Below are positions 9,798 to 43,758 of a DNA stretch of 64,000 nt, piece after piece. How positions within the stretch are numbered: position 1 is the first letter of the stretch; every line of letters begins with the position of its first letter. Origin of the DNA: Chloroflexota bacterium (lineage in GTDB: Bacteria > Chloroflexota > Anaerolineae > UBA7937 > B3-Chlor); contig JAUWLF010000007.1 in NCBI GenBank assembly GCA_030613785.1, forward strand, positions 4,191 through 68,190, in the 5' to 3' direction. The notes under the pieces were generated by a model, which ran no database searches, was not told the origin of the DNA, and saw only the letters and a program-made list of their open reading frames with translations. The position numbers were made by a program, and so were the translations under genes.

Positions 9798-9932
9798 GTC
9801 CGTGGCAGGTGCTCCGACACTTCGTCGCAGTCCTGTGAGTGCGCTCCCTGAGCGAGGACGGCGGCATAGGGGCGGCCGGGGGAACTGTCCTTTGCACGAC
9901 GAAGTCACTTGATCTGTCTGCCAAACTGGACG
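9798..9932 (+). ncRNA. Candidate structured 5' leader (cis-regulatory RNA)
   Basis: Nested complementarities GTCC/GGAC, TGGCAG/CTGCCA, ACTTCGTCG/CGACGAAGT and inner hairpins, starting at the predicted TSS. Confidence 0.4.
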
Positions 9933-9979
9933 AGCCACTTGGCCTCGGGGGGTCGAAAGACAGCATGGAGGGTGTGACC

Positions 9980-11581
9980 ATGAAGGAGAAGAAGGTCCGA
10001 GATGTGGTTCTCGAATCCGGCATTTCCGTGAAGCCGATCTATGGCCCTGAGGATGTGGCTGACATAGACTACCTCAGGGACATCGGGGAGCCAGGTACCT
10101 ATCCTTTCACCCGCGGCATCCACAAGTACATGTACAGGTATCGTCCCTGGACCATGCGCCAGTACGCTGGCTTTGGAACCCCTCAGGAGAGCAATCAGCG
10201 TTTCAGGTATCTCATTGAGCACGGACAGAACGCCCTCAATGTGGCTTTCGATCTACCCTCTCAAATGGGTCTAGATTCCGACGATCCCCTTGCCTGGGGT
10301 GAAGTGGGCCGGGTGGGGATGGCGGTGGACACCCTGCATGACATGGCGATGGCCTTCGAAGGCATCCCCGTGGACAAGATCAGCGTCAGCCTGACCATCA
10401 ACGGCGTGGCCGCCATCATGATGGCCATGTACTTCGTGGTGGCTGAGACGCAGGGGGTGCCTCTGAACAAGTTGAGGGGCACGGCTCAAAATGACATCCT
10501 CAAGGAGTACATTGGGCGGGGAACCTGGATTTTTCCGGTGGAGCCCTCCATTCGTCTCATTGGCGACACCATCGAGTTCTGCGCGGAAAACGTGCCCTAC
10601 TACTATCCCGTCAGCGTGTGCGGATATCACATCCGTGAGTCGGGAGCCAATCCGGTTCAGGAGATCGCGTATGCTTATGCCATCGCCTCGGCCTATGTCG
10701 AGCACGTGCGGGAACGGGGCGTGGATGTGGATGACTTCGTGGCTCGTCTTTCCTTCAATTTCGACATCTGGGGCAACATCTTCGAACAGGTGGCCAAGTT
10801 CCGCGCCGCACGTCGTCTGTGGGCCAAGATAGTACGGGAGAGGTTCGGAGCTACCAATCCCAAGGCCATGCAGATGAAGATGATCGCCGGGGGTGGCGGT
10901 GGGGGCCTGACTATCGAGCAGCCTGAGAACAACATCGTGCGCGGCGCTTACTATGCTCTCGTGTCGGCCCTTAGTGGCACCCAGACGATGGCTTTGTGTA
11001 CTTATGACGAAGCTTACACCATACCGACGGAGAAAGCAGCCCTCATCGGCCTCCGCACTATGCAACTCCTGGTGGAGGAGATGGGGGTGTGTGACACGGT
11101 GGATCCCCTGGCCGGCTCGTACTACATCGAGCGCCTGACCGCTGACCTAGAGGAGAAGATCGTGGCAGAGATGGAGAAGGTGGAGCAAATGGGGGGCATC
11201 GTCAAAGCAATCAGTGAGGGCCACATCCAGCGTGAGGTTGCGCGCCAAGCATACCTCTATGAGCAGGCCATCCAGAAAGGGGAGATCGTCAAGGTCGGCG
11301 TGAACAAGTACCGTATCGAGGAAGAGGAGCGGGATGTCGAACTCCACGAATATAAGCCAGAGCAAGCGGAGGAGAAGCTTCGGCGCTTGAACGAGATCAG
11401 GTCTCAGCGCGATGGGGCCAAAGTGATTGAGGCTTTGGAGAACGTGCGTCGAGCGGCTGAAGGAACAGACAACCTGATGCCGTACATCATGGAAGCCGTG
11501 CGGGCCTATGCCACCGTCGGGGAGATGACGCAGGTTCTCAAGGATGTTTTCGGCGAGTTTAGGGAGCCGGTCGGGCTATGA
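9980..11581 (+). CDS. B12-dependent acyl-CoA mutase, large substrate-binding subunit (MCM family, atypical active site)
   Basis: PFTRG, WTMRQYAGFG, GTAQNDILKE, GYHIRE and DPLAGSYYIE; no B12 domain (separate gene at 34908). Confidence 0.92.
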   Translation: MKEKKVRDVVLESGISVKPIYGPEDVADIDYLRDIGEPGTYPFTRGIHKYMYRYRPWTMRQYAGFGTPQESNQRFRYLIEHGQNALNVAFDLPSQMGLDSDDPLAWGEVGRVGMAVDTLHDMAMAFEGIPVDKISVSLTINGVAAIMMAMYFVVAETQGVPLNKLRGTAQNDILKEYIGRGTWIFPVEPSIRLIGDTIEFCAENVPYYYPVSVCGYHIRESGANPVQEIAYAYAIASAYVEHVRERGVDVDDFVARLSFNFDIWGNIFEQVAKFRAARRLWAKIVRERFGATNPKAMQMKMIAGGGGGGLTIEQPENNIVRGAYYALVSALSGTQTMALCTYDEAYTIPTEKAALIGLRTMQLLVEEMGVCDTVDPLAGSYYIERLTADLEEKIVAEMEKVEQMGGIVKAISEGHIQREVARQAYLYEQAIQKGEIVKVGVNKYRIEEEERDVELHEYKPEQAEEKLRRLNEIRSQRDGAKVIEALENVRRAAEGTDNLMPYIMEAVRAYATVGEMTQVLKDVFGEFREPVGL

Positions 11582-11596: not shown

Positions 11597-12827
11597 TTGG
11601 ACCAAGCCAGTTCACCGATAAGAGAGGGGGCTGACAGACTGTTGCTGTCAGGAGTACGCATCGTGGACCTGACCCACATGCTCGCGGGGCCGTTCGGGTC
11701 CATGCTGTTGGCTGACCTCGTAGCAGAGGTCAGCAAGATCGAGAATCCTCAAGGAGGGGATCCGACCAGACGGGTAGGGCCGCCGTTCGTCGAAGGAGAG
11801 AGCGGCTATTTCATGAGCATCAACCGCAACAAGCGGAGCGCGGCGCTGGATCTTCGCCAGACTCAAGGCCGCCAGGTTCTCCACGATCTGGTGAAGGTCT
11901 CGGATGTGGTATTCAATAACTTCCGGCCTGGCACGATGGAGAAGCTGGGATGCGGGTACGACGTTCTTGAGGAGATTAGCCCCCGGCTCATCTACTGTTC
12001 CCTCACAGGCTTTGCCGAAACGGGACCATACAGAGATCGTCCTGCGTTCGACCTGGCCATTCAGGCTATCAGCGGGGCAATGAGTATCACTGGTGAGCCT
12101 GACCGCCCACCCGTGCGCATGGGTGTCCCATTGGGGGACTTGAGTGGCAGCTTGTTCTGCGCTTTCGCCATCTCCGCAGTTCTCTACGCGAGGGAGAAGT
12201 CAGGTGCCGGTCGCAGGATTGACGTTGCTCTGATGGATTGCATGATCTCATTGCTGACCTACGTGGGCCAGTATCACCTGATCGATGGACAGGTTCCAGG
12301 TCCCATCGGCTCCGCCCACCAGTCGGTGGTGCCGTATCAAGCCTTTGCGACCAAGGACACATACGTCGTGGTCGCCATCTTCGTGGAGAAGTTCTGGCAC
12401 GCCTTCTGCCAGGTCTTGGGAGTCGAGGAACTGGCCGCCGATCCCCGTTTCGCCCACGGCGATCGGCGCGCTGAAAACCGGCATGAGTTGATACCCATCT
12501 TGGAGGAGATCCTACGCAGCAAACGTGGCGATGAGTGGCTCGAACTGTTGGCCGAGGTGGGGGTGCCTTGCAGTCCGATCAACACTTTGGACCGCGTCTT
12601 CTCGGAGCCGCAGGTGGCTGCCCGCAACATGGTGGTGGAGGTGGATCACCCGACAGTTGGCCGTCTGCCCTCCATAGGGAATCCCGTGAAGACGTCTCCA
12701 CAGGGTGAGGCACCCTTCCGACCCGCGCCCCCTGTGTGGCGAGCACACTGACGAAGTGTTGAGGGAGATCTTGCGATATTCGCCCAGCCGGATCGCAGCA
12801 CTGCGTGACAAGGGCGTCATCGGCTAG
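11597..12827 (+). CDS. Class III CoA-transferase (CaiB/BaiF), frameshifted near the C-terminus
   Basis: DLTHMLAGP, NRNKRS, NFRPG, catalytic Asp in GVPLGD; conserved tail GEHTDEVLRE...KGVIG* lies in another frame after ~12736. Confidence 0.85.
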
Positions 12828-12917
12828 GCACGTGGTTTCACTGGCGAACTCGATGGAAAGTCATCTCTCACCCGCCCAAGGAGGGAGATGCAGTCACGGA
12901 CTGGAGGATGGAGAAGT

Positions 12918-14972
12918 ATGCGTATCGGTATTGACGTTGGAGGGACCTTCACGGACATCGTACTCATAGATGATGCCACCAGAGAGGTACACTACACCAA
13001 GGTGCTGACCACTCACGATGACCTGGCCAGGGGTGTCATCGCTGGCATCGACAAGATGCTGGAGATGGTGGGCGCCACTTTCGACAAGGTAGACTACACG
13101 GTGCATGGTACGACGATTGGCACCAACGCTCTCATCGAGCGGAAGGGAGCACGTACAGGACTGATCACTACGCAGGGCATGAGGGACGTCTTGGAGATAG
13201 GTCGCATCGAGCGGCCCGCTGCGGGTCTGTATGATATCTTCGTTGACACCCCGCTGCCTCTTGTGCCGCGATACCTGCGTGTGGATGTCGAGGAGCGGGT
13301 CGGGGTAGACGGGGAGGTGGTCGTTGCCCTTGACGAGGAATCGGCTCGCGAGGCGGTGCGCTTCCTCAAGGACCAGGCGGTGGAATCCATAGCCATCTCT
13401 TTTCTCTTCAGCTTTCGGAACCCCACACACGAGGAGCGAGTGCGGGAGTTCTGCCAGAGCATGTTCCCGGAGGCAGCCGTTTCCATATCCTCCGAGATCG
13501 CCCCCGAGTTCCGTGAATTTGAGCGTACTTCCACCACGGTCATCAACGCGTATCTGGCTCCGGTCGTTGAATACTATCTGGACAATCTAGAGGGACAACT
13601 TCAAGACCGGTACGGGGACGTAGACCTGCGTATCATGCAAGCCAGCGGTGGCTCCATGACCACGGAGATGGCCAAGCATCGAGCGGTCAACATCGTCAAC
13701 TCAGGTCCTGCTGGCGGGGCACTGGCGGCTGCCTATGTGGGGCGACTGACGGGCGACGACCAGGTCATCAGCGTGGACATGGGTGGCACGAGTTTCGATG
13801 TGGGTGTGATAGACCGTGGCGAACCTCGCGTAGCGCCCGAAAGCCAGTTTGAGGGTTTCCCCGTCAAGATACCCATCCTCGACGTGCAGGCCATCGGCGC
13901 GGGTGGCGGGAGCCTGGCGTGGATCGACGAGGGTGGCGCTCTGAATGTAGGGCCTGAGAGCGCCGGGTCGGAGCCTGGACCAGCTTGCTATGGATTGAGT
14001 GGAGAGCAACCGACGGTCACCGACGCAAACCTGGTGTTGGGCCGGCTCAATCCCGAGTACTTCCTGGGCGGGGAGATGAAGCTATATCCGGAGTTGGCTG
14101 AGGCGGCCATCGTGCAGCACGTGTCCGAACCGTTGGGGGTATCTCTTGAAGAGGCGGCGAGTGGAATAATCCGCGTGGTCAACGCCAATATGGAGAGGGC
14201 CATCAGCGTGAATTCGACTGAGAAGGGCTTCGATGTCCGGGAGTTCGCTCTGCTCCCCTTCGGAGGCGCAGGGCCGCTACACGCCGTAGAATTGGCACAG
14301 GACTTGGACATGAAAAGGGTGGTTGTCCCTCCCTACGCGGGCACTTTCTCCGCAGTCGGACTTCTGGTGGCGAACACGCGCTACGACTATGCTTCCACAG
14401 TGGCCAAGAGCGAGAAGGAGCTGACGCCTGAGGAACTGCTCAGGAGGTTCAAGGAACTGGAGACTGAGGGCCGGGCTCAACTGAAGGCCCAAAACGTAGC
14501 TGAGGATCAGATCGAGATTCTCTGGTCTGCCGATTTGCGGTATGAGGGCCAATCCTATGAGCTCAGCACACCGGTGAAGCGCAGCGAGGTTCTCACACAG
14601 TCCGACATCAGAGAAATCGTGAGCCTTTTCCACGACATGCACCACCGCATCTACGCCTATGGCTCGGTGGATGAGATCGTCGAGTTCATCAACTTGAGAG
14701 TGGCGGCCATAGGCAAAGTGCCTGAGGTGTCACTGGCGCACAGCGGGGCCACAGGAGGTGACGCTGGAATTGCACGAAAGGACACTCGTCCGGTTCATTT
14801 CCTCAAGGAGGGCTTCATCGACACGGCGATCTACGACCGCGCTCTGCTCCGGCCAGGGCACGTGGTCACCGGCCCGGCTTTGATCGAGGAGATAGCGTCG
14901 ACCACGGTCATTGCTCCAGGCTCCGAGGGAACGGTAGACGAGTTTGGTAATATCATCATCCCTCTGTCATAG
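12918..14972 (+). CDS. ATP-dependent hydantoinase/oxoprolinase subunit A (HyuA-like)
   Basis: IDVGGTFTD, HGTT, SGPAGG, DMGGTSFD, GAGGGS, PTVTDAN and FGGAGPLH. Confidence 0.93.
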   Translation: MRIGIDVGGTFTDIVLIDDATREVHYTKVLTTHDDLARGVIAGIDKMLEMVGATFDKVDYTVHGTTIGTNALIERKGARTGLITTQGMRDVLEIGRIERPAAGLYDIFVDTPLPLVPRYLRVDVEERVGVDGEVVVALDEESAREAVRFLKDQAVESIAISFLFSFRNPTHEERVREFCQSMFPEAAVSISSEIAPEFREFERTSTTVINAYLAPVVEYYLDNLEGQLQDRYGDVDLRIMQASGGSMTTEMAKHRAVNIVNSGPAGGALAAAYVGRLTGDDQVISVDMGGTSFDVGVIDRGEPRVAPESQFEGFPVKIPILDVQAIGAGGGSLAWIDEGGALNVGPESAGSEPGPACYGLSGEQPTVTDANLVLGRLNPEYFLGGEMKLYPELAEAAIVQHVSEPLGVSLEEAASGIIRVVNANMERAISVNSTEKGFDVREFALLPFGGAGPLHAVELAQDLDMKRVVVPPYAGTFSAVGLLVANTRYDYASTVAKSEKELTPEELLRRFKELETEGRAQLKAQNVAEDQIEILWSADLRYEGQSYELSTPVKRSEVLTQSDIREIVSLFHDMHHRIYAYGSVDEIVEFINLRVAAIGKVPEVSLAHSGATGGDAGIARKDTRPVHFLKEGFIDTAIYDRALLRPGHVVTGPALIEEIASTTVIAPGSEGTVDEFGNIIIPLS

Positions 14973-15010
14973 GCAGAGAGCGAGTCAATTCTCAATCCAG
15001 GAGGTATTCC

Positions 15011-16729
15011 ATGGCTTACAAGGCTGATTCCATTACCATGCAGGTTATCCGCTATGCCATGGAGCAGGCGGCTGATGAGATGGGCCGAACACTAGTCCGC
15101 ACGGCACGCTCGACGGTCATCAAGGAGATCGAGGATATGACGTGCTCCGTCTTCGACCGTTACGGCAATACCATCGCCCAGGCTCACCATGCTCCTATGC
15201 TTCTCACGGGGTTTGAACTTGGGATGCGCGCCCTTGTCGGGAAGTACAAGCCTGAGGATCTCGACCCCGGTGACATGATCATGTTCAACGATCCTTATGC
15301 CGGCGGCCAGCACGTCATGGATATGGTGACCTTTGCGCCGGCCCACTACGACGGGGAGTTGATCGGCTTCGCTGGTAGCATCGCGCATCACTCAGACATG
15401 GGCGGCGCGGTGCCCGGGGGAACGGCCGGCGGACTGACTGAGATCTATCTCGAGGGCCTACGTTTTCCGATGGTCAAGCTGTACAAGAAAGGTGAGGAGG
15501 ACCCTGAACTCTTCGGCATCCTGGAGAACAACATCCGCGTTCCAGACAAGACACTGGGGGACATCCGCGCGCAGGCCTCAGCCGACTTCGTAGGCGTGCA
15601 GAGGCTGCGGGACATTTTTGAGAAGTACGGGGTCGAGGTAGTGCAGAAGTGTCAGGAGATGCTGCTGGACTATTCGGAGAGCCGCATCCGGGCCGGGTTG
15701 AGGAAGATCGCCGACGGCACATACAGCGGTGTGGACTGGATTGACGACGATGGTCAGACTGACGAGCCGATCAGGCTTCAAGTGAATATCCACAAGAAGG
15801 GCGATGAAGTCGCTGTTGATTTCGACGGCACGGCCAAGCAGGTGAAGGGCAATATCAACTGCCCCATAGCCACGGTCCACGCCGCTGTGTACTACGCCCT
15901 CATCGCCGTGATCGATCCCCACGTGCCGCCGAACTCAGGCTGCTATCGCCCTTTCACCGTCGAGGCTGAGGAGGGGCTCATCGTCAACCCACGGATGCCT
16001 GCCGCGGTGGGTGCCCGAACCAATACGTCACAGAAAATCGCTGAGGCGATGATGCTGGCGCTGTCCGAGGTTGTCCCTGATCGTGTTCAAGCCGGCTGTC
16101 ACGGTCAGATTACCAACTGCGGATTCAGCGGCTACCACCCAAGATCGGGAAAGCGCTTCGTCTTCATCGACATCCAGGGTGGTGGCGCAGGTGCTCGACC
16201 CACCAAGGATGGTCGGGATGGTCAGGACTCGCATCTAGCGCGCTTCAAGAACACGCCCATCGAGGCCGTCGAGATGGAGTACCCTGTACGTATCCTGAAA
16301 TACGAGTTCATTGCCGACTCAGGGGGAGCGGGCAAGTACAGGGGAGGCTTGGCCGTACGCCGAGACATCGAGGTGCTCACAGATGACATGTCACTGGCTC
16401 GATATGGCGACCGTCAACGCTTCGGCGCCTTCGGCCTGTTTGGCGGCAAGGAGGGGAGCAAGGGCAAGTTCATACTCAACCCTGACACGCCCGAGGAACG
16501 CCAGCTCAAGTCCAAGGGGCTGGATGTCCTCAACAGCGGAGACGTCGTGAGCCTCCGATTGCCAGGTGCCGGGGGCTACGGCGATCCCCTGGAACGTGAC
16601 CCGGAACTGCTCCTGCAAGATGTCAGAGATGGGAAGGTGACCCTGGAAAGCGCACGGGACGATTACAAGGTGGTCATAGATCCGGACACTTGGCAGATAG
16701 ATGAAGAGGCGACCAAGAAGCTCAGGTGA
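15011..16729 (+). CDS. ATP-dependent hydantoinase/oxoprolinase subunit B (HyuB-like)
   Basis: NDPYAGGQH, AHHSDMGG, EGLRFP, NTPIEAVE and DSGGAGKYRGG. Confidence 0.93.
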   Translation: MAYKADSITMQVIRYAMEQAADEMGRTLVRTARSTVIKEIEDMTCSVFDRYGNTIAQAHHAPMLLTGFELGMRALVGKYKPEDLDPGDMIMFNDPYAGGQHVMDMVTFAPAHYDGELIGFAGSIAHHSDMGGAVPGGTAGGLTEIYLEGLRFPMVKLYKKGEEDPELFGILENNIRVPDKTLGDIRAQASADFVGVQRLRDIFEKYGVEVVQKCQEMLLDYSESRIRAGLRKIADGTYSGVDWIDDDGQTDEPIRLQVNIHKKGDEVAVDFDGTAKQVKGNINCPIATVHAAVYYALIAVIDPHVPPNSGCYRPFTVEAEEGLIVNPRMPAAVGARTNTSQKIAEAMMLALSEVVPDRVQAGCHGQITNCGFSGYHPRSGKRFVFIDIQGGGAGARPTKDGRDGQDSHLARFKNTPIEAVEMEYPVRILKYEFIADSGGAGKYRGGLAVRRDIEVLTDDMSLARYGDRQRFGAFGLFGGKEGSKGKFILNPDTPEERQLKSKGLDVLNSGDVVSLRLPGAGGYGDPLERDPELLLQDVRDGKVTLESARDDYKVVIDPDTWQIDEEATKKLR

Positions 16730-16738: not shown

Positions 16739-17242
16739 ATGGAGAACTCGATCCTGGACAGCCTGGAATACGATGCGGAGGAAGGGCGTATCACCTTCAA
16801 AGACGTGCGTTACATGGTCATCCGGCCCGATACGGTGGTGGACTTTCAGAAGGCGGTGGAGGCCCAGGTCGGTGAAGGAGCGGCCGAGATGATGATGGCC
16901 GGCGGTTACACGGGCGGGTCCCGCTCGTCGAGGAGGTACAAGCAGGTCTTCGAATACTCCGACGAGGAGACAGTCGCCTTCATGTGTAAGATGGGAGGCG
17001 AGATCGGCTGGGGTAGATTCGAGGTTGAGAAGCTGGACGTGGTTGGCAAGGAGTTAGTGATCACAGTCAGAAACTCCCCCTTTGCCGAGGCATACGGCAG
17101 GTCGGACAAGGGTGTCTGCCACATGATTCGCGGTGTGATGGCCGGGATGGCGGCCGGCATCTTCGGGAGTGACATCAACTCGGAGGAAACTCTGTGCGTG
17201 GCCAAGGGGGACGCATTGTGCCGCTTCGTGCTCAGAGGATGA
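16739..17242 (+). CDS. Stand-alone V4R-domain protein (predicted small-aromatic/hydrocarbon binding)
   Basis: GWGRF, NSPFA, VCH..RG and EETLCVAKGDALCRF pattern. Confidence 0.82.
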   Translation: MENSILDSLEYDAEEGRITFKDVRYMVIRPDTVVDFQKAVEAQVGEGAAEMMMAGGYTGGSRSSRRYKQVFEYSDEETVAFMCKMGGEIGWGRFEVEKLDVVGKELVITVRNSPFAEAYGRSDKGVCHMIRGVMAGMAAGIFGSDINSEETLCVAKGDALCRFVLRG

Positions 17243-21762: not shown

Positions 21763-22314
21763 ATGGACTTGAAGATGATCCTGGCTGGTGTGGGAGGACA
21801 GGGGGTCCTCTTCGCCACCAGGGTATTCTCCGAGACGGCGCTGGCCCTAGGCTACGATGTGCTGGGCTCGGAAACCCATGGTATGAGCCAGCGAGGAGGG
21901 TCCGTCGTCTCGCATCTGAAGATAGACGGCTACGAGAGCCCTCTGATTCGGCAGGGCACGGCTGATGTCCTGCTCTCCTTCGATGAGGATGAGGCGTACC
22001 GCACCTTAGCTTTTGTCAGACGCGGGGGCCTCTGCTTCGTTAGCAGTCCTCATGGCGATTTCTGGGACAACGGGGTGAAGGCGTACCTGACCAAGAACAA
22101 CATTGCAGCTCACAGCCTTGCAGCCGACGAGATAGCTCTGGAACTGGGCTCTCCGCGGTCTGCCAACCTGGCTCTCATCGGCTATGCTGTGAGCGTTCCG
22201 GAGGTGCGCTTCGGCTACGATGAGATCAAGGCCACGATTGAGCGCATCAGCCCGTCAAGATTCAAGGAGGTCAACTTGAGAGCTTTTGAGGGCGGCTACG
22301 GGAGGAAACAATGA
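21763..22314 (+). CDS. iorB: Indolepyruvate:ferredoxin oxidoreductase beta subunit
   Basis: GVGGQG and SETHGMSQRGGSV. Confidence 0.93.
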   Translation: MDLKMILAGVGGQGVLFATRVFSETALALGYDVLGSETHGMSQRGGSVVSHLKIDGYESPLIRQGTADVLLSFDEDEAYRTLAFVRRGGLCFVSSPHGDFWDNGVKAYLTKNNIAAHSLAADEIALELGSPRSANLALIGYAVSVPEVRFGYDEIKATIERISPSRFKEVNLRAFEGGYGRKQ

Positions 22315-23186
22315 AGTGGGAGAAGTACCTCTTCCCCGCCTCGATTGAAGAGGCCCTGGCGATGCTGGAAGAGCACCAAGGCAGGGCGAGGGTGATTGCT
22401 GGCGGGACAGACCTAGTGCCGGAGCTGAAGCGGAGGGAACGCGAGGTGGAGTGCCTGGTGGACATCAGCCGCCTGGAGGAGTTGAAAGGCATCCAGCTTG
22501 AAGGAGACGTGATCAGGGTCGGTGCCTCCGTCACACACCAACAGTTGGCGGCCTCTGACCTCATCCGCGAAAGGGCCACTGCGTTGGCTGAGGGTGCGCA
22601 TGCGGTTGGATCTCCACAGATACGCTACATGGGCACGGTGGGCGGTAATATCGTCAACGCTCAACCCGCTGCGGACACAGCCATTCCCCTGATGGCCTTG
22701 GATGCAGAGGCTGAGATCGTGAGCTGTGAGGGATCCCGTGCTGAGCCACTGGAGAGCCTATATGTCAGACCAGGGGAATCCACCGTGGACGCCAGTACTG
22801 AGATCCTCGTAGCTTTGCGCTTTCGGGGCTTGGACGGCAATGAAGGCTCCGCCTTCGCTCGGTTGGCAAAGCGAAAGGCTCTGGCGCTGCCCATCTTGAA
22901 CGCGGCGGTGGTAGCCAGCTTGAACGGAGCTGGAACGGCCTTCGAAGAGGTGAGATTGGCCCTCGGCCCCGTGGCCCTCATACCGTTCCGTGCTCGAAAG
23001 GCCGAGGAGGCTCTGCGGGGAAAGGCGATCGAGACTGAGGCCATCGCTTCCGCGTTGGAGATAGCGAGCGAAGAGGCACAGCCGCGAAGCAACCCCTTGC
23101 GGGCCACACGAGAGTATCGCCAAGAGATGGTTAGGGTCTTGCTGAGGCGTGCCCTCCAGAGGGCCGTGGAGTCCGCGCAGTCGTGA
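22311..23186 (+). CDS. Xanthine-dehydrogenase-family Mo enzyme 1, FAD subunit
   Basis: IAGGTDL and GSPQIRYMGTVGGNI..A.PAAD. Confidence 0.9.
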   Translation: MKWEKYLFPASIEEALAMLEEHQGRARVIAGGTDLVPELKRREREVECLVDISRLEELKGIQLEGDVIRVGASVTHQQLAASDLIRERATALAEGAHAVGSPQIRYMGTVGGNIVNAQPAADTAIPLMALDAEAEIVSCEGSRAEPLESLYVRPGESTVDASTEILVALRFRGLDGNEGSAFARLAKRKALALPILNAAVVASLNGAGTAFEEVRLALGPVALIPFRARKAEEALRGKAIETEAIASALEIASEEAQPRSNPLRATREYRQEMVRVLLRRALQRAVESAQS

Positions 23187-23199
23187 GAAAAGGAGGCAG

Positions 23200-23682
23200 A
23201 TGGAACTCGAGGGAGCACGAGCTATGGTATCTCTGACTATGACTCTGAATAACGAGGAGGTCACGATAGAGGTCGGGCCTGACGCGTTGCTGGTGGATGT
23301 GCTGCGCGATCAACTTGAGCTAACGGGAACCAAGGAGGCGTGTGGGGAGGGTGAGTGTGGAGCCTGCACTGTGCTGCTGGACGGAGAACCGGTGACCTCT
23401 TGTCTGGTGCCGGCCCTGAAGGCTCAGGGGCGCGAGGTAATGACAGTAGAGGGCCTGGCCTCCGGCGGGGAACTCCACCCTCTTCAGAAGGCCTTCATCG
23501 AACACGGCGCAGTACAATGCGGGTACTGCACGCCTGGGATGTTGATGTCGGCCAAGGCGTTGCTGGACAAAAACCCGCACCCGACCGAGGGGGAGATCAG
23601 GCAGGCGATCTCTGGTAACCTCTGCCGCTGCACGGGATACGTGAAGATTGTTGAAGCTATCGAGGCGGCTAGCGAAGACTGA
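23200..23682 (+). CDS. Mo enzyme 1, 2x[2Fe-2S] subunit
   Basis: CGEGECGACTV, QCGYCTPG and GNLCRCTGY. Confidence 0.93.
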   Translation: MELEGARAMVSLTMTLNNEEVTIEVGPDALLVDVLRDQLELTGTKEACGEGECGACTVLLDGEPVTSCLVPALKAQGREVMTVEGLASGGELHPLQKAFIEHGAVQCGYCTPGMLMSAKALLDKNPHPTEGEIRQAISGNLCRCTGYVKIVEAIEAASED

Positions 23683-23706
23683 CCAGTTTCTGTGGAGGAA
23701 GTAGTA

Positions 23707-25980
23707 ATGTCGGAAGAGCTCTTCTATGTAGGAAGGCGAGTGCCCAAGCTAGACGCACCGGCCAAGGTCACTGGCCAAGTCGTATACGGCCATGACATGA
23801 AGCTACCGCGGATGCTTCACGGCAAGATCCTCAGGAGCAAGCACGCGCACGCTCGCATATTGAACATCGATACCAGCAGGGCGAAGGCGTTGCCTGGAGT
23901 GAAGGCCGTGATCACCGCTGAAGATACCCCTGAGATCAGGATCGGTTGGGCGCGTGATCATCCCGTTTTGAAATCGGGCAAGGTTCGGTCCATACGGGAT
24001 GAGATTGCCGCGGTGGCGGCCGTCGATGAGTACACTGCGCAAGAGGCTCTAGAACTGATCAAAGTCGAATACGAGGAATTGCCTGGAGTATTCGATCCTG
24101 AAGAGGCCATTAAGCCGGGCGCTCCCATCATTCATGAAGAGGCGCCAAACAACATCCAGGAGAAGATGCGGCAGTCCTATTTCCACGGCGATGTGCACCA
24201 GGGTTTCGTTGAGTCCGATGTCGTGATTGAAGATCGTTTGCGGCTGCCCTTCGTTACCCACTGCTGCATGGGCACTTGCTTCTGTCTGGCCAGTTTCAGC
24301 CCTTCGGGGGACTTGACGGTCTGGAGTTCGACGCAGATGCCCTTCTTATATCAGCGTGACCTGAGCATGGCGCTGGGGATACCGGCCACCAAGATCAGGG
24401 TTATCAAGGTAACGATGGGTGGTGCCTTCGGCAGCAAACTGGACATGTATCCCTTCGAGCCTATCTGCATCCTGCTGGCCCAGAAGACGGGCTGCCCGGT
24501 GAGGATTACCTTCACTCGTGAAGAGGAGTTCATCGCATCTCCGACCCGGCAGCCGGTGATCTGTGACATCAAGAGTGGGGCAAAGAAGGATGGCACTCTG
24601 ATGGCCCGGCAGGTCAGCATGATTCTGGACAATGGCGCGTATAGCTCATGGGGAGCAACGACTCCGCTTGTCATGATGCAGAGCATCTCTTCCCTCTATC
24701 GCGTTCCCAACGTCAAGTATGACGTAGTGGTGGCCTATACCAACAACCTCTACAGCGGCGCAATGAGGGGGTACGGAAACCCTCAGGCCACTTTCGTGAT
24801 CGAGTGCCACATGGACATGCTGGCCCACGAACTGGGTATGGACCCCATGCAGTTTCGGCTGAAGAACGCCAACCAACCCGGCGATGTGACCGGCCAGGGG
24901 GTGAAGATAACCACCTGTGGCCTTACTGAATGCATCGAGAGGGCAGCCGACAGCGTAGCCTGGGTGGAGAAACGGGCCAAGCCGGGGAACCGAGGCGTGG
25001 GTATGGCGGCCATGATTCATGTAGGCGGCGGAGCGCGGATCTATCCGTCCGATGGCTGCGGAAGCACAGTGAAAGTGGATGACTATGGCAAGGTCACCCT
25101 GGTTACTGGCTCCACCGACATGGGACAGGGATCGGAGACGGTCTTGGCCCAGATCGTGGCCGAGGAGTTGGGAGTCCCGGTCGAGAATGTCACGGTGATC
25201 AATACCGACACTGACATCACACCCTGGGACGTGGGAGCCCACGCCAGCCGCACCACTTTCATAGCTGGCAACTCGGCTCGCTTGGCCGCGGCCGATGCCA
25301 AGGGACAGATCTTGGAGGCGGCGGCCCAGAACATAGGCGAGGATGTGGAAGACCTGGATATGAAGGACGGCAAGATCTTCCGCAAGGGAGAGCCTGAGGA
25401 ATGGATTCCCTTCGCCAAGATGGTGCGCAGCAAGCACTTCCGCCCCGATGGGGATGTGATCTTGGCCAAGGGTTGGTACGAGCCTCCCACAGAGAGACAG
25501 GACAAAGAGTTCCGCGGCAACATCTCGGCTACCTATGGTTTCGCTGCTCAAGCTGTTGAGGTCGAGGTGGACACGGAGACCGGCGAGGTGACGGTGCTGA
25601 AGATCGCGGCTGCCCACGACGTAGGACGAGCCATTAATCCCATGGCGGTGGAGGGGCAGATCCATGGCGGAGTGTCCATGGGTCTGGGATATGGGCTCTA
25701 TGAGGAACTAGTCGTGCAAGAGGGGGAGGTGCTCAACCCTAACTTCGCCGACTATGCGCTGCCTACAGCCCTCGACATGCCTCCCATCGAGTCGATCATC
25801 ATCGAGACCGATGATCCTGCTGGTCCTTTTGGTGCCAAGGGGATGGCGGAGCCGGCCTGCATACCCACGGCCCCGGCCATTGTCAATGCCGTCTATGACG
25901 CGGTCGGGGTGAGGATTCGAGACCTCCCCATCACCCCAGAGAAGGTATTGAATGCTCTGAAGGAGAAGGAGGCGAGATGA
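23707..25980 (+). CDS. Mo enzyme 1, molybdopterin-binding large subunit (candidate indole-ring hydroxylase)
   Basis: SSTQ, GGAFGSK, AMRGYG, GAHASR and KGMAE with catalytic Glu retained. Confidence 0.9.
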   Translation: MSEELFYVGRRVPKLDAPAKVTGQVVYGHDMKLPRMLHGKILRSKHAHARILNIDTSRAKALPGVKAVITAEDTPEIRIGWARDHPVLKSGKVRSIRDEIAAVAAVDEYTAQEALELIKVEYEELPGVFDPEEAIKPGAPIIHEEAPNNIQEKMRQSYFHGDVHQGFVESDVVIEDRLRLPFVTHCCMGTCFCLASFSPSGDLTVWSSTQMPFLYQRDLSMALGIPATKIRVIKVTMGGAFGSKLDMYPFEPICILLAQKTGCPVRITFTREEEFIASPTRQPVICDIKSGAKKDGTLMARQVSMILDNGAYSSWGATTPLVMMQSISSLYRVPNVKYDVVVAYTNNLYSGAMRGYGNPQATFVIECHMDMLAHELGMDPMQFRLKNANQPGDVTGQGVKITTCGLTECIERAADSVAWVEKRAKPGNRGVGMAAMIHVGGGARIYPSDGCGSTVKVDDYGKVTLVTGSTDMGQGSETVLAQIVAEELGVPVENVTVINTDTDITPWDVGAHASRTTFIAGNSARLAAADAKGQILEAAAQNIGEDVEDLDMKDGKIFRKGEPEEWIPFAKMVRSKHFRPDGDVILAKGWYEPPTERQDKEFRGNISATYGFAAQAVEVEVDTETGEVTVLKIAAAHDVGRAINPMAVEGQIHGGVSMGLGYGLYEELVVQEGEVLNPNFADYALPTALDMPPIESIIIETDDPAGPFGAKGMAEPACIPTAPAIVNAVYDAVGVRIRDLPITPEKVLNALKEKEAR

Positions 25981-27170
25981 AGGATCTGTTCACCGATATC
26001 ACGGTGCTGAGCATGGAGCAGGCGACCGTCCTGCCGTATCTCACCTACAGATTGGCTGCTGAGGGCATGAGGGTCATCAGGGTGGAACATCCGGAGCGAG
26101 GTGATCCCAACCGGCTGGTCGGTACCAATGTCCTCGGAGAGGAGGGGATGGATAGCTACTTTCTACCCAACAACGTGGGTAAGAAGGCCATCACCCTGAA
26201 CCTGAGAGGCGAGGAAGGGCCGGCGATCTTGCGTGACCTGATTCTCGAGTTGGATGTGGATGTCTTCGCCTCCAACATGTTGCCGCGGAACTATGCCAAG
26301 CTAGGAATATCCTACGAGCAACTCAGAGCCATCAAGGAAGACATCATCTGGATCGGTATGACTGGCTTCGGGCCGCAGAGTAATGAAGCGGCTTATGACC
26401 CCATCCTGCAAGCCAGGGCTGGGATCATGGACCTGACCGGTGAGCGCGATGGCCCCCCACAGGTGTTTGGGCTGCCCATGGCCGACCTGGGGGCGAGCGA
26501 GCAAGGTTATGGCCAGATCATGAGAGCGCTGTACATTCGGCAGGCCACTGGCGAAGGTTCGCGGGTGGACATTTCCATGTTCCAGAGCTTGGGCTCCTGG
26601 GAGGTGAATCCTGTCATGCTCGCCAAGAGCTTCGGCGCGGAGATCACGCGGCGGGGGAACACTCACGAGTTCTTTGCCCCGGTCTCAGTGTATGAGACCA
26701 AGGATGGATACGTCTACATCGCTGTCGGCAATGACCGGCAGTGGCAGGCCATGACCGAGCTATCAGGGTTCGAGTCGCTAAATCGAGAAGAGCGCACGGT
26801 GAACGCCGGGCGGATAAAGGATGTGGACCGTCTGAATGCCGAGATAAGCGAGATAACTAGGACGAGGATGACCAATGAGCTCATAGAACTGTTCAACAGC
26901 ATAACTGTTCCCATCTCCACAGTTAGTAGCATTGACGACGTAATAGAAGACCCTCTTGTCAAGGACAAGATGATAACAGCCAAGGATCCCCGCACTGGCA
27001 GGGAGGTCTTCTTGCCACCAACGCCGGTTATCACCCCTTACCTGGAGTCGGCGGGAATGCAGATGTCCTTCCCTCCGCGTATGGGCGAGCACAACGAGGA
27101 GATCTACGGAGACATCCTGGGATACGATGCCCAGAAGATGAACGAGTTGAAAGGGGCTGGTGTGATCTGA
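25977..27170 (+). CDS. Class III CoA-transferase (CaiB/BaiF)
   Basis: NNVGKKAITL, AYDPILQA, Asp in PMADL and PPRMGEHN. Confidence 0.88.
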   Translation: MKDLFTDITVLSMEQATVLPYLTYRLAAEGMRVIRVEHPERGDPNRLVGTNVLGEEGMDSYFLPNNVGKKAITLNLRGEEGPAILRDLILELDVDVFASNMLPRNYAKLGISYEQLRAIKEDIIWIGMTGFGPQSNEAAYDPILQARAGIMDLTGERDGPPQVFGLPMADLGASEQGYGQIMRALYIRQATGEGSRVDISMFQSLGSWEVNPVMLAKSFGAEITRRGNTHEFFAPVSVYETKDGYVYIAVGNDRQWQAMTELSGFESLNREERTVNAGRIKDVDRLNAEISEITRTRMTNELIELFNSITVPISTVSSIDDVIEDPLVKDKMITAKDPRTGREVFLPPTPVITPYLESAGMQMSFPPRMGEHNEEIYGDILGYDAQKMNELKGAGVI

Positions 27171-27202
27171 TGAGCCTTTCTGGCAAAGGAGCAGAGTCTG
27201 AG

Positions 27203-28318
27203 ATGCAGGAACTGACGCTCAATGAGAATCTGTTGGCCGCGCCTGTCCATGTGGCCGGCAAACCTATAGAGGAAGTGCGGAGGGAATATGGTCTAGAGAG
27301 GATCATCAAGCTGGCCTCGAACGAGAACCCTCTCGGCCCATCGCCTCTGGCCGTGGAAGCGATCAAGAAGGCTCTCCCAAACGCCCATCGGTATCCGGGA
27401 ACAGTCGAAGCCAATTTGCGTGCGAGGCTGGCCCAGCTCATGGGCGGCGACTTTGACGAAGACAACATCATCATCGGCAATGGTTCGTGCGACGTGCTGC
27501 GTATGGTATGCCTGGCTTTCCTGCATGACGGAGGCGAGAGTGTTGTTTGTCCCTCCACGTTTCCCATGTACAGGATCTACACTCAGATGTTTGGTGGCAA
27601 CCTGGTGCCAGTCGAGGCTCGGGACTATGCCTATGATCTGCCTGCGATGGTGGAGAAGATCGGTGACGCCACGAGGTTGATCTTCGTTTGCAATCCCAAC
27701 AATCCCACAGGCACGATGCTGACCCAGCAGCAGGTTGATGATTTCATGGAGCAAGTGCCCGAGCGGGTGGTAGTGGTGGTCGATGAGGCGTACTACGATT
27801 ACGTTGCTGACGAGCACTACGCCAGCGTCAAGGAGTACATTGAGGAGGGCCGCAACGTCATCTTGACGCGAACCTTCTCCAAGATCCATGGCTTGGCCGG
27901 TCTTCGAGTGGGATATGGCGTTGCCAAGAAGGAGATGATCCAATACTTGCAACACGCCCGTTCACCCTTCCATGTGGGGTCGGTGAACCTGATCGGAGCC
28001 ACAGCTAGCCTGGATGATGTAGAACACATACAGCGGAGCAGAACGCTGAACGCGGCCGAGAAAGAATACCTCTACGAGCAGTTCGACAGACTGGATCTGC
28101 GCCACATTCCCTCTGAAACCAATTTCATACTGCTTCCGGAGTTGAGGCACGACGCGGTGGCTATGAGCGAGGCGCTCTTACGTCAAGGGGTGATCGTGCG
28201 TCCGGCAGGCGGTTTCGGTGTCCCGGGAGCCATTCGAGTGACCATAGGTACGAGGGAGGAGAACGAGCGCCTCGTGTGGGCGCTGGAACAGGTACTGCAC
28301 GAACTGACAGAGGGGTGA
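27203..28318 (+). CDS. Class I/II PLP aminotransferase, HisC-like (probable aromatic amino-acid aminotransferase)
   Basis: KLASNENPLG, NPNNPTG, DEAY and RTFSKIHGLAGLRVGY; no other his genes nearby. Confidence 0.85.
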   Translation: MQELTLNENLLAAPVHVAGKPIEEVRREYGLERIIKLASNENPLGPSPLAVEAIKKALPNAHRYPGTVEANLRARLAQLMGGDFDEDNIIIGNGSCDVLRMVCLAFLHDGGESVVCPSTFPMYRIYTQMFGGNLVPVEARDYAYDLPAMVEKIGDATRLIFVCNPNNPTGTMLTQQQVDDFMEQVPERVVVVVDEAYYDYVADEHYASVKEYIEEGRNVILTRTFSKIHGLAGLRVGYGVAKKEMIQYLQHARSPFHVGSVNLIGATASLDDVEHIQRSRTLNAAEKEYLYEQFDRLDLRHIPSETNFILLPELRHDAVAMSEALLRQGVIVRPAGGFGVPGAIRVTIGTREENERLVWALEQVLHELTEG

Positions 28319-28376
28319 TTCGCTTCCATGGCACGAGGCGTTGAGGAAGCGGGATTCCGCGTCAGAGTAGTGGATC

Positions 28377-29516
28377 ATGGATTTCGGGTTCACCCAGGAT
28401 CAGGAGCTCTTGAAGAGCAGCGTGGCGAGTTTCGTGGACAGGGAGGTCATCCCCGCTGCGGCCCGGATCGATGAGGAGGGCCGCTTTCCCGGCGAGCTAT
28501 TCCGGAAGGCGGGTGAACTGGGGTATTTCGGGATTCGCTATCCAGGGACGTACGGCGGCTCGGGCGGGGACAACGTGATGTTCGCTTTGATGTGCGAGGA
28601 ACTGGCCAGGGGCTGCATGAGTCTGGCCGCCAGTGTTGTCATGCAGTGTCTGATGGGCACTAGTTTCGTTCACCGTTTTGGGACGGAGAAGCAAAGACAG
28701 CAATTGCTTGTTCCCGCCATCCGAGGCGAGAAAATCGGGGTCATCGCCATGACTGAGCCCGATGCCGGGTCTGACCTGGGAGCCATCACAACCAGCGCCT
28801 GCCGCGATCACGACGGCTACGTCTTGAAAGGGCGCAAGACGTGGGTCACCAACGCCAGCCTGGCTGATTTCTTCACGGTGGCTGCCAAGACTGATCCCGA
28901 AGCCGGATTCAGGGGCATTGACATGTTCTTGGTGGAAAAGGAGAGGCCTGGCGTCAGTATCGGAAAGGACATCGCCAAGATGGGGGTGCGGGGTCTAGGG
29001 ACTGGTGAGTTGATCCTGGAGGATTGCCGCATCCCCGCCGACAACCTTTTCGGCAAGGAGGGAACTGGCTTTCGGAACCTGCAAGGGATCCTGGAGGAGA
29101 TCCGCATCATGATGGGATCATTGAGCCTGGGCCTGGGGCAAGCTGCTCTGGACGGGGCCGTGCGATATGCTCAGGAGAGAGTCCAGTTCAACCGTCCCAT
29201 CGCCAAGTTCCAAGCCATCTCCCACAAGTTGGCGGATATGGCTACACAGTTGGAAGCCGCCAGGCTGCTGGTCTATCGGGCGGCCTGGCTTGTTGATCAG
29301 GATGAGCGAGACATGAAACTGGCTTCCATGGCCAAGCTGTTCGCCTCGGAGATGGCCAACCAAGTCGCCGACGGTGCCTCTCGCATCTTCGCCAGCTACG
29401 GGTTCGCCATGGAGTATGATGCACAGCGGTACTTTCGCGACGCACGGTTCCTATTGCTTGGTGGAGGAACATCGGAGGTCCTACGAGGGATCATTGCCTA
29501 CCAGATGTGCCTGTGA
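28377..29516 (+). CDS. Acyl-CoA dehydrogenase family protein 1 (no canonical catalytic Glu)
   Basis: AMTEPDAGSD, GRKTWVTN, RVQFNRPI and GGGTSE. Confidence 0.9.
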   Translation: MDFGFTQDQELLKSSVASFVDREVIPAAARIDEEGRFPGELFRKAGELGYFGIRYPGTYGGSGGDNVMFALMCEELARGCMSLAASVVMQCLMGTSFVHRFGTEKQRQQLLVPAIRGEKIGVIAMTEPDAGSDLGAITTSACRDHDGYVLKGRKTWVTNASLADFFTVAAKTDPEAGFRGIDMFLVEKERPGVSIGKDIAKMGVRGLGTGELILEDCRIPADNLFGKEGTGFRNLQGILEEIRIMMGSLSLGLGQAALDGAVRYAQERVQFNRPIAKFQAISHKLADMATQLEAARLLVYRAAWLVDQDERDMKLASMAKLFASEMANQVADGASRIFASYGFAMEYDAQRYFRDARFLLLGGGTSEVLRGIIAYQMCL

Positions 29517-29568
29517 GGCCGATCATAGAGGCGTAGGCGCCATTACCACTGAAGGGAGCTGAGGAACG

Positions 29569-30714: not shown

Positions 30715-30729
30715 CAGACGGAGGGAAAG

Positions 30730-31719: not shown

Positions 31720-31722
31720 GTC

Positions 31723-32190
31723 ATGGAAAAGCAGCTTATCCAGTTGACCGTGAACGGTGAGGATCATGATGTCGTCGTTACACCCAACCAGACGCTGGTT
31801 GATGTGCTACGGGAGGATCTAGAGCTGACTGGGACCAAGGTGGGATGCGACGAGGGGGCCTGCGGAACCTGCACCGTGCTCATGGATGGAAAGCCCGTGC
31901 GTTCCTGCCTCACTCTCGCTGTCGAAGCACAGGGGAAGTCGATCGAGACCATCGAGGGGCTGGCTTCAGGTGGAGAGTTGCATCCTGTGCAGAAGGCCTT
32001 CATTGAACACGGGGCCATCCAGTGTGGCTTCTGCACTCCGGCCATGATCCTGACCAGCAAGGCGTTTCTTGAGCAGAACCCCCATCCCACAGAGGAGGAA
32101 GTGAGACGCGCCATCTCGGGTGTGGTGTGTCGCTGTACTGGATACGCCAAGATCGTGGAAGCAATCATGGCGGCAGCGGGAGAGTCTTAG
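31723..32190 (+). CDS. Mo enzyme 2, 2x[2Fe-2S] subunit (HcrC-like)
   Basis: GCDEGACGTC, QCGFCTP and CRCTGY. Confidence 0.92.
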   Translation: MEKQLIQLTVNGEDHDVVVTPNQTLVDVLREDLELTGTKVGCDEGACGTCTVLMDGKPVRSCLTLAVEAQGKSIETIEGLASGGELHPVQKAFIEHGAIQCGFCTPAMILTSKAFLEQNPHPTEEEVRRAISGVVCRCTGYAKIVEAIMAAAGES

Positions 32191-32207
32191 AAAGGAAGGA
32201 CGGCACC

Positions 32208-42390: not shown

Positions 42391-42443
42391 CCGCTGGTCA
42401 ATTCGGAGAACTATGTAAGGAGAAACGTAAGGAGAAATGGAGA

Positions 42444-43694: not shown

Positions 43695-43758
43695 GCAACT
43701 CGCCTCATGGTGTAGGCGTTGAACTGGCGAGCATGATTCCAAGCTGACAGGCGGTGGA

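Follow-up and report, generated by a model that had tools for sequence, protein, structure and literature searches.

A glycine-run acyl-CoA mutase of the probable IaaH type in an Anaerolineae gene cluster

The operon for the anaerobic indoleacetate (iaa) pathway was reportedly described by Ebenau-Jehle in 2012. According to PMC8360864, iaa operons occur in Ferroglobus placidus, Aromatoleum and sulfate reducers, and their products include the benzylmalonyl-CoA dehydrogenase IaaF, the mutase IaaGH and the CoA-transferase IaaL, with the IaaGH reaction treated as proposed. The stretch of DNA considered here (the window) comprises 64,000 nucleotides from a Chloroflexota bacterium of the class Anaerolineae (assembly GCA_030613785.1, contig JAUWLF010000007.1, positions 4,191 to 68,190 of the forward strand), and encodes an acyl-CoA mutase large subunit that carries a run of six glycines. 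Judged by sequence, the clade that shares this run consists of IaaH proteins, large subunits of the proposed IaaGH mutase. The iaa-type mutase is already known as a kind, and the window adds an Anaerolineae-type member.

Several related mutases are better described. In methylmalonyl-CoA mutase (MCM), Glu370 holds the adenosyl ribose, and Gln197 is also counted among the conserved catalytic residues. Tyr, His and Arg residues contact the substrate in the human enzyme, MMUT, according to PMC11988910. The 2-hydroxyisobutyryl-CoA mutase (HCM) of Aquincola tertiaricarbonis, HcmAB (4R3U), is a split monocarboxylate enzyme. It has Ile and Gln where MCM has Tyr89 and Arg207 (RQIAGF, MAQKEY), and it keeps a conventional strand-7 segment (FHCQTAAATL) and HTNGYDEA. 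Ethylmalonyl-CoA mutase (ECM), attributed to Erb et al. 2008, is said to keep the dicarboxylate logic while accepting a substituent on the migrating-centre carbon. Finally, ActD and MatBQ, from actinonin and matlystatin biosynthesis, are hexylmalonyl-CoA mutases, and ActD/MatB belong to a split HCM subclass with a dedicated epimerase (PMC5719088). Compared by description only, ActD/MatB and ECM differ from the window mutase in handling alkyl substituents, and in serving natural-product clusters or the ethylmalonyl-CoA pathway, not the catabolism of an indole ring.

We consider it probable (roughly 0.7) that the window protein is the IaaH subunit of a split adenosylcobalamin-dependent mutase that interconverts (2-aminophenyl)succinyl-CoA and (2-aminobenzyl)malonyl-CoA, with its specificity set by a remodelled barrel face. 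A preliminary description of this DNA had proposed an aryl-substituted succinyl- or malonyl-CoA mutase, with (aminophenyl)succinyl-CoA as the matching substrate. This proposal is supported, because three independent lines agree: orthology to IaaH, an iaa-type gene context, and a score that stays below the MCM equivalog cut-off, albeit in a biased test. We infer the substrate, the lining of the acyl pocket by the glycines, and the pairing with a distant small subunit.

The mutase gene and its relationship to IaaH

The gene lies in a plus-strand open reading frame (ORF) at 9839–11581 and encodes a full-length acyl-CoA mutase large subunit. Its start is likely the ATG at 9980, with GGAGG eight bases upstream; the resulting length of 533 residues matches that of most homologues. 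Residue numbers given here count from this Met; the outputs of the structural model and alignments run from codon 9977, and their numbers are one higher. Residues 13–526 align with positions 3–512 of the 512-position model PF01642 (MM_CoA_mutase, E 2.9e-196), and the score against TIGR00641 is 644.9 bits (cut-off 303.8). The gene and its motifs are as follows.

9980–11581, plus strand: acyl-CoA mutase large subunit, IaaH orthologue (PF01642, TIGR00641, AlphaFold2 (AF2) model, 61% identity to IaaH)
10157–10174, plus strand: RQYAGF, with Tyr62 (codon 10163–10165) equivalent to MCM Tyr89 by alignment to 1REQ_A
10505–10528, plus strand: EYIGRGTW, with Arg180 (codon 10517–10519) equivalent to MCM Arg207 by alignment
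10619–10639, plus strand: CGYHIRE, with His217 (codon 10628–10630) equivalent to MCM His244 by alignment
10757–10759, plus strand: Asn260, facing Phe287 of MCM, at the C terminus of barrel strand 6 (clade columns, model)
10874–10912, plus strand: MKMIAGGGGGGLT, with the glycine run at 10889–10906 (position confirmed by translation)
10883–10906, plus strand: Ile-Ala-Gly6 after barrel strand 7, opposite MCM His328–Ser335 (alignment, translation)
10985–11014, plus strand: TMALCTYDEA (position confirmed by translation)
10991–11005, plus strand: Ala-Leu-Cys-Thr-Tyr, opposite MCM His364–Leu368, preceding the conserved Asp-Glu-Ala at 11006–11014

Over 526–530 residues, the protein is 61% identical to the large subunits of Aromatoleum evansii (P0437) and Thauera aromatica K172 (P0424), which carry MIAAGGGGGL and ALCSYDEA. 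The UniRef entries of T. aromatica K172 and T. chlorobenzoica are named ‘Heterodimeric methylmalonyl-CoA mutase, large subunit IaaH’. It is because of this identity to a named IaaH and the shared pocket signature that the large subunit is read as IaaH and the small one as IaaG. The preliminary description had looked to an alignment with the Iaa mutase for a check, and its outcome is in keeping with the proposal: the pocket signature is the same, and those of MCM and of isobutyryl-CoA mutase (ICM)-type enzymes are different. A protein search from a Rhodocyclaceae copy of the gene led to Aromatoleum bremense, A. toluclasticum and Thauera aromatica, to which the 90% clusters add A. evansii and Azoarcus sp. 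CIB. Among the best 120 hits of this search, 62 carry Ala-Ala-Gly5 and 58 carry Ala-Gly6.

The comparison with IaaGH of Aromatoleum aromaticum and A. evansii rests on the proteins of A. evansii and T. aromatica K172, not on the A. aromaticum EbN1 protein itself. Shared features are the split architecture, the retained Tyr, Arg, His and Glu residues, the small-residue segment, ALC(S/T)YDEA, and the same partner genes, a GGG-type IaaF included. However, the window has Ala-Gly6 where the Aromatoleum and Thauera proteins have Ala-Ala-Gly5, and its subunit genes are 23 kb apart rather than adjacent as in the known operon. The window cluster also contains an indolepyruvate:ferredoxin oxidoreductase (IOR), an aminotransferase and a TrpB-like gene, with no IaaB-type ligase among the scanned ORFs, and its host is an Anaerolineae-type bacterium, going by how the closest homologues are named.

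Among solved structures, the closest phmmer match is the large subunit of HcmAB (4R3U_A, E 8e-146), followed by human and Propionibacterium shermanii MCM. Like HcmAB, with which it shares 45% identity, the window mutase is split. However, its RQYAGF and IGRGTW place Tyr and Arg at the MCM 89/207 positions, as in dicarboxylate-type enzymes, where ICM and HCM have Phe or Ile together with Gln; the Ile/Gln pair of a 2-hydroxyisobutyryl-CoA mutase is absent from it.

The candidate partner of the large subunit is encoded downstream.

34908–35306, plus strand: B12-binding small subunit of 132 residues, IaaG orthologue (PF02310; DxHxxG motif at 34953–34970)

Its motif reads GLDGHDRGAK, and it scores 152 bits against TIGR00640 (cut-off 57), with E values of 3.5e-41 to 2YXB and 1e-36 to the small subunit of 4R3U. 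It is 63–71% identical to the partners that stand beside glycine-run mutases in five mostly Anaerolineae-named loci (L027, L029, L031, L073, L075), and 58% identical to the genome's own paralogue. The products of 9980–11581 and 34908–35306 are, on these sequence grounds, likely to form a pair. Fused forms of the large subunit and B12 domain also exist among close homologues (P0051, P0052, P0058).

The genome (4.29 Mb, about 95% complete) encodes two large and two small mutase subunits in all. The second large subunit (contig C23; L001, 841–3069) belongs to the ICM/HCM type: where MCM has Tyr89 and Arg207, it carries Phe and Gln (VRMFAGY, IAQKSY). Its gene adjoins one for a CobO-like adenosyltransferase. 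The gene for the second small subunit, its presumed partner, adjoins MeaB on another contig (C10; L135, L136). No canonical MCM was detected in this genome, at the completeness given.

A remodelled barrel face

In phmmer alignments with 1REQ_A, 2XIJ_A, 8GJU_J and 4R3U_A, the window motifs face RQYAGF, (F)MVRNTY, LRTHSQTSGWSLT and SLHTNSLDEA of P. shermanii MCM, for which the literature numbering is the SEQRES index plus one. Tyr62, Arg180, His217 and Glu344 correspond to Tyr89, Arg207, His244 and Glu370, respectively. In addition, TAQNDILKE aligns with the Gln197 region, CGYHIRE with Tyr243-His244, and YDEA with Glu370. Met-Ile-Ala-Gly6 (301–309) takes the place of Thr327-His-Ser-Gln-Thr-Ser-Gly-Trp-Ser335, so that Ile302, Gly304 and Gly308 face His328, Gln330 and Trp334. 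Similarly, Ala338-Leu-Cys-Thr-Tyr faces His364-Thr-Asn-Ser-Leu, with Ala338 opposite His364 and Cys340 opposite Asn366, and Asn260 stands opposite Phe287. Consequently, the MCM pocket is altered at six positions: His328 to Ile, Gln330 to Gly, Trp334 to Gly, His364 to Ala, Asn366 to Cys and Phe287 to Asn.

Translation and alignment to solved MCMs agree with the preliminary description that RQYAGF and EYIGRG, with the Tyr89 and Arg207 equivalents, are kept, and that THSQTSGWS and HTNSL of MCM have become MIAGGGGGG and ALCTY. The range that it gave, 10154–11010, covers the motif region but drops the last four bases of TMALCTYDEA. Its hollowed poly-Gly segment is likewise present, but as a clade-wide feature rather than one special to the window gene, as the conservation described below indicates.

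The AF2 model, built from a 98-row alignment, has a predicted local distance difference test (pLDDT) score of 95.1. Superposed on 4R3U and on 4REQ, an MCM with bound substrate, it gives a template-modelling (TM) score of 0.97 and a root-mean-square deviation of 1.3–1.4 Å. In model numbering, strands run at 258–262, 301–304 and 337–338; a non-strand segment follows the second of these, and the glycine-run block has a mean pLDDT of 89. The substituted residues stand at, or just past, the C-terminal ends of these three strands. In TIM barrels, the C-terminal strand ends form the catalytic face, and by this rule the substituted residues of the model would lie on the barrel side that holds Tyr89 and His244. 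Summed over the eight-residue strand-7 segment, side-chain volume falls from 968 cubic angstroms in MCM to 616, about 350 less.

Relative to MCM (P. shermanii 1REQ/4REQ, human 2XIQ), the protein shares the TIM-barrel fold (TM 0.94–0.97) and the residues that bind carboxylate, thioester and adenosyl groups. It differs in the six replaced pocket residues, in carrying the B12 domain on a separate polypeptide, and in falling below the MCM equivalog cut-off. Against that model (NCBIfam NF006944) it scores 533.1 bits, where the cut-off is 876 and the model spans the B12 domain and penalises split subunits. No scanned representative of the glycine-run clade or its neighbours reaches this cut-off, under the same bias; among the scanned representatives, only those with HCQTSG(W/A)SL pass.

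The replaced segments are strongly conserved within the clade. Among the best 120 homologues, which are 70–99% identical to the window mutase, [IL]AGGGG[GS]GL and ALC[STC][YF]DEA are both kept in 119, and the Arg motif is kept in all 120. A degenerate DNA pattern for M-x-A-G-G-G-G-x-G-L-T, applied to one genome per GTDB species, gave at least 120 matches. Of the 120 listed, 117 encode this mutase by tblastn (58–91% identity), 115 of them with alignments longer than 150 residues; no mutase match was obtained for loci L022, L040 and L122. Among the listed matches, the mutase is present in at least 14 named phyla, archaea included, which is a lower bound skewed towards the Gly6 variant, as the pattern demanded GCN-GGN and missed the Aromatoleum type (GCN-GCN). 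Its holders include Chloroflexota, Bacteroidota, Myxococcota, Planctomycetota, Bacillota, Thermoplasmatota and Archaeoglobi. Although the ALC motif lies outside the DNA pattern, it was seen in 68 of 74 pattern-found proteins (in the other six, the regular expression picked an earlier DEA), and CGYH[IM]RE occurs in 73 of the 74 extracted clade proteins.

Glycine codons vary synonymously over the 120 listed loci, where five of the six positions are Gly by pattern design. At the sixth position, which the pattern left free, 89 loci encode Gly, 16 Ser, eight Ala and seven Phe. In the window, the run is encoded by GGG GGT GGC GGT GGG GGC. Slippage or an assembly artefact was considered as a source of the run and ruled out, as the codons are mixed and vary synonymously across loci.

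Outside the clade, both segments are highly variable: among the 150 best 50%-identity cluster representatives, the run occurs only in P0121, P0122, P0129 and P0229. When both motif segments were removed from an alignment of 216 rows, FastTree placed the 76 glycine-run rows on one side of a branch with an SH-like support of 99, a measure that is weaker evidence than a bootstrap. Of 75 clade rows, all have the Arg207 equivalent and 74 the Tyr89 equivalent, the remaining row being gapped there. At 18 columns, the residue reaches at least 95% conservation in the clade but is shared by no more than 10% of 141 other representatives; Asn260, Ile302, Gly304, Gly305, Gly309, Ala338 and Leu339 are among them. 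Asn260 is found in 100% of the 75 clade rows, as against 6% of the other 141, where Phe is commonest. The run of small residues is a hallmark of the whole IaaH clade and no peculiarity of the window gene. No printed account of this signature was found in the literature searched, in which IaaGH is named only in PMC8360864 and outside which the primary iaa papers lie. NCBIfam likewise holds no model for ECM, HCM or the glycine-run clade.

Beyond this clade, the equivalents of both Tyr89 and Arg207 are found in 58 of 140 representatives of 50%-identity clusters, and 15 of these 58 keep His328, Gln330 and Asn366. The other 43 have different pocket make-ups and fall in no curated family, forming a large uncharted set of dicarboxylate-type mutases.

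Under the reading that we favour, IaaH would be the TIM-barrel catalytic subunit, with IaaG at 34908–35306 as its B12 partner. Action would be MCM-like: Tyr and Arg would hold the free carboxylate, His the thioester, and Glu the adenosyl ribose. By analogy, the reaction presumably proceeds as in MCM, by a radical 1,2-shift that moves the CoA-carbonyl group, here acting on a malonyl- or succinyl-CoA with a 2-aminophenyl group on the migrating-centre carbon, and would form the carbon-skeleton step of the iaa pathway. Just past the ends of strands 6, 7 and 8, the clade-wide remodelling (Asn for Phe287; Ile-Ala-Gly6 for His328–Ser335; Ala-Leu-Cys for His364-Thr-Asn) would remove side chains at His328, Gln330, Trp334, Phe287, His364 and Asn366, and so might make room for the aromatic ring.

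A structural role for the run is an improbable alternative: the glycines would form a flexible hinge after strand 7, used in opening and closing the barrel round the CoA arm, and specificity would come from Asn260, Tyr325, Met361 or Cys340. The spread of the 18 clade-specific columns across the protein, the tolerance of Phe or Ser at one run position, and the location of the run outside strands with slightly lower pLDDT (89) are all compatible with such a hinge. However, the segment reads His-x-Gln-Thr in all representatives that pass the MCM equivalog and in ICM-type enzymes, and is hypervariable in the 43 Tyr/Arg-type representatives with other pockets. The hinge is disfavoured because this pattern is expected of a segment that determines specificity. 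Moreover, a bulky motif has likewise given way to GGG in IaaF, which acts next in the pathway (PMC8360864).

Gene neighbourhoods across phyla

Among the listed pattern matches, 44 loci have at least 14 kb around the glycine-run mutase (full loci), and partners were sought within 8 kb. A B12 small subunit gene was found in 43, a family III CoA-transferase in 41, an acyl-CoA dehydrogenase (ACAD) in 35, a hydantoinase in 34 and a molybdenum (Mo) hydroxylase in 28. Leaving the small subunit aside, 40 of the 44 hold two or more of the four partner types. In a Rhodocyclaceae locus (L133), the order HydA-HydB-ACAD(GGG)-small-large-Mo enzyme-CoA transferase matches the lettering iaaC to iaaL. The order on a Ferroglobus sp. 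contig (L132) is HydB-V4R-ACAD(GGG)-small-large. The window and L133 have the order mutase, Mo enzyme, CoA-transferase in common. The Rhodocyclaceae genome behind L084 (G002) carries the ACAD-small-large module twice, with Ala-Ala-Gly5 in one copy and Ala-Gly6 in the other, as well as three further mutase paralogues.

Several points weigh against the assignment of the window protein as an (aminophenyl)succinyl-CoA mutase. Four of the 44 full loci (L006, L016, L024, L032) have no hydantoinase, ACAD or Mo enzyme nearby, and because of these the mutase module may serve other substrates too. In the window, 23 kb separate the two subunit genes, whereas they lie within 8 kb of each other in 43 of 44 other loci. 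No assay or purification of IaaGH was found in the literature searched, which excludes the primary iaa papers. At the level of the pocket, the change from HTNSL to ALCTY slightly raises the summed volume, from 639 to 674. The Gln330 position holds Ala in the Aromatoleum/Thauera type (62 of the 120 hits listed), and the Trp334 position holds Phe in five of 76 clade rows (seven of the 120 listed loci by codon), in a few Alphaproteobacteria-type members. The six-glycine stretch could serve backbone flexibility or barrel closure instead. Lastly, as the genome has no canonical MCM, some methylmalonyl-CoA activity of the mutase is possible, and the failed MCM-equivalog test is biased in that its model includes the B12 domain.

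The four exceptional loci still hold a CoA-transferase and the small subunit, and the two of them that were scanned, L024 and L032, also contain genes of the beta-oxidation type. L024 (1551–14864), from a member of the Bacteroidia, lacks a hydantoinase and encodes a 1465-residue BcrAD/BadFG-type activase fused to DUF2229. It also carries a three-gene 2-oxoacid:ferredoxin oxidoreductase that adjoins the CoA-transferase, mutase and small subunit.

Such loci bring in another explanation, which we regard as unlikely, though less so than the hinge. The window protein could be an arylsuccinyl- or alkylsuccinyl-CoA mutase of the same clade with a different substrate, such as a ring-substituted analogue or what the hydantoinase-like enzyme yields by opening another N-heterocycle, the iaa module being a general tool. 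Besides the absence of hydantoinase, ACAD and Mo-enzyme genes from four full loci, and the BcrAD-type activase and 2-oxoacid oxidoreductase in their place in L024, this is favoured by the modules that the window holds in duplicate (GGG-type ACADs, CoA-transferases and Mo-hydroxylase sets). It is also favoured by the acceptance of alkylmalonyl-CoAs with chains of at least four carbons by IaaF (PMC8360864). However, the window cluster also encodes an aminotransferase, a TrpB-like enzyme and an IOR that exceeds its equivalog cut-off, all of which point to indole compounds, and the mutase is orthologous to that of organisms grown on indoleacetate.

The gene cluster in the window

The neighbourhood of the window mutase comprises the following genes.

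11597–12751, plus strand: family III CoA-transferase adjoining the mutase (PF02515, E 2.6e-128)
12888–16729, plus strand: hydantoinase/oxoprolinase-like proteins A (12888–14972) and B (15011–16729), IaaC/IaaE-like (PF01968, PF05378, PF19278, PF02538)
16739–17242: V4R-domain protein of 167 residues, right after the hydantoinase-B-like gene, also on the Ferroglobus contig (L132, 475–954, 50% identity) and in Anaerolineales loci L029, L037 and L069
17490–19808: TrpB-like pyridoxal phosphate enzyme (NF009057, 707 bits, cut-off 366) and a SerK/SbnI-like protein of 274 residues
19851–22314, plus strand: IOR alpha and beta subunits (TIGR03336, 668.7 bits, cut-off 650.9)
22311–25980, plus strand: Mo-hydroxylase FAD, 2Fe-2S and Mo subunits (profile scan)
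25977–27170, plus strand: second family III CoA-transferase, the copy that more closely resembles the proteobacterial iaa-cluster transferase
27170–28318: aminotransferase in the iaa-type cluster
28377–30714, plus strand: two IaaF-like ACADs, with GGG for YEG at 29460–29468 and 30655–30663
30730–34487: second Mo-hydroxylase set, most like 4-hydroxybenzoyl-CoA reductase, under its cut-offs
34484–34927, plus strand: methylmalonyl-CoA-epimerase-like VOC protein, with GFFLISY at 34709–34729

Much of this cluster has counterparts in the described pathway. IaaCE is a hydantoinase-like hydrolase of 707 and 564 residues, proposed to open 2-oxoindoleacetate (PMC8453981), and the replacement of YEG by GGG is given as the signature of IaaF in PMC8360864. 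In the window, the two dehydrogenase motifs read LLLGGGTSE and LLYGGGTQT. The proteobacterial iaa transferases are 37–41% identical to the copy at 25977–27170 and about 29% identical to that at 11597–12751. Three modules are doubled within 22311–34487 and 11597–12751, namely the Mo-hydroxylase sets, the family III CoA-transferases and the GGG-type IaaF-like dehydrogenases. This doubling could reflect two substrates, or two hydroxylation or reduction steps.

Other genes in the cluster concern the supply of indoleacetyl-CoA, of which IOR is the likely source. Its alpha subunit exceeds the equivalog cut-off given above, and the IOR beta models score under theirs in the window. No AMP-binding CoA ligase of the IaaB type was detected among the scanned ORFs of the cluster. 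TrpB2-type enzymes use phosphoserine. The 274-residue protein has weak matches to the serine kinase SerK and to SbnI (E 1e-17 to 4e-19, far under the cut-offs), and homologues of the TrpB-like enzyme stand near the mutase in L069 (83%) and L034 (56%). Taken as gene content, the TrpB-like and SerK-like proteins, the aminotransferase and IOR suggest an encoded route from indole through tryptophan and indolepyruvate to indoleacetyl-CoA.

The VOC protein matches solved methylmalonyl-CoA epimerases with E values of 7e-14 to 5e-16, and stays under the TIGR03081 equivalog cut-off (98.4 bits against 114.95). The metal ligands of methylmalonyl-CoA epimerase, in the P. shermanii structure, are His, Gln/Glu, His and Glu. 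Where solved epimerases have GEG(V/I)HHIA(F/I), the window protein has GEGFFLISY, with Phe-Leu for His-His, and lacks the second His ligand; alignment and translation here confirm the earlier remark that the partner epimerase is without one usual His. The His pair is also missing in seven of nine VOC homologues beside glycine-run mutases, and the other two, from Anaerolineales loci, keep the pair but lack the first His. An epimerase-like subfamily with GEG[VFLI][MF][LI][IV]S occurs beside glycine-run mutases of several phyla (L003, L005, L010, L036, L045, L052, L060). According to PMC8360864, IaaF takes only one benzylmalonyl-CoA enantiomer, and either enantiomer is converted into the other by a conventional epimerase. 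It therefore makes sense for the cluster to encode an epimerase of its own.

This protein also bears on the notion that the window mutase is the organism's own MCM, serving propionate or succinate metabolism with a divergent pocket. The epimerase-like gene in the cluster, the retained Tyr89, Arg207, His244 and Glu370 equivalents, and a genome with no canonical MCM and an ICM type as sole other family member are what one would expect of such an enzyme. However, the epimerase-like protein is without one metal ligand and under its equivalog cut-off, the iaa context is tightly conserved (40 of the 44 full loci), the protein is orthologous to IaaH, and His328, Gln330, Trp334, His364, Asn366 and Phe287 are all replaced. 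A housekeeping MCM was rejected on context, orthology and the replaced pocket, and we regard this as by far the least probable of the readings considered.

Elsewhere in the window, a block on one strand at 42303–53285 contains genes for glutamate dehydrogenase, NuoE-like, NuoF-like, 2Fe-2S/4Fe-4S, HdrA-like plus MvhD, FrhB-like, GXGXG and glutamate-synthase-domain proteins. It may encode a ferredoxin- or NADH-coupled, perhaps bifurcating, glutamate synthase.

A broader proposal joins these threads, and we hold it tentatively, as rather less than an even chance: that hollowing by glycines is a trick used across the pathway, in both the mutase and IaaF, that the signature pair is diagnostic of a new class, and that in this Anaerolineae-type genome the pathway starts at indole. 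Bare-backbone segments may seat the benzene ring in the space that a hydrogen or a methyl takes up in the parent enzymes. [IL]A[AG]GGG.GL together with ALC[STC][YF]DEA would then be diagnostic of a new specificity class among acyl-CoA mutases. Indole may be converted to tryptophan by the TrpB2-like and serine-kinase-like proteins, then to indolepyruvate, and directly to indoleacetyl-CoA by IOR.

Taken by itself, the window yields a solid annotation rather than a discovery. IaaGH accounts for the single radical reaction in the anaerobic auxin pathway, and the signature separates IaaH genes from the database label ‘methylmalonyl-CoA mutase’. Combined with a confident model, it also indicates residues to mutate, and offers a template for engineering mutases that act on bulky aryl substrates. 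Oxygen-free degradation of indoleacetate or tryptophan is encoded far beyond the denitrifying Betaproteobacteria. If the broader proposal is true, the signature would map oxygen-free auxin and tryptophan degradation in at least 14 phyla, Thermoplasmatota and Archaeoglobi included.

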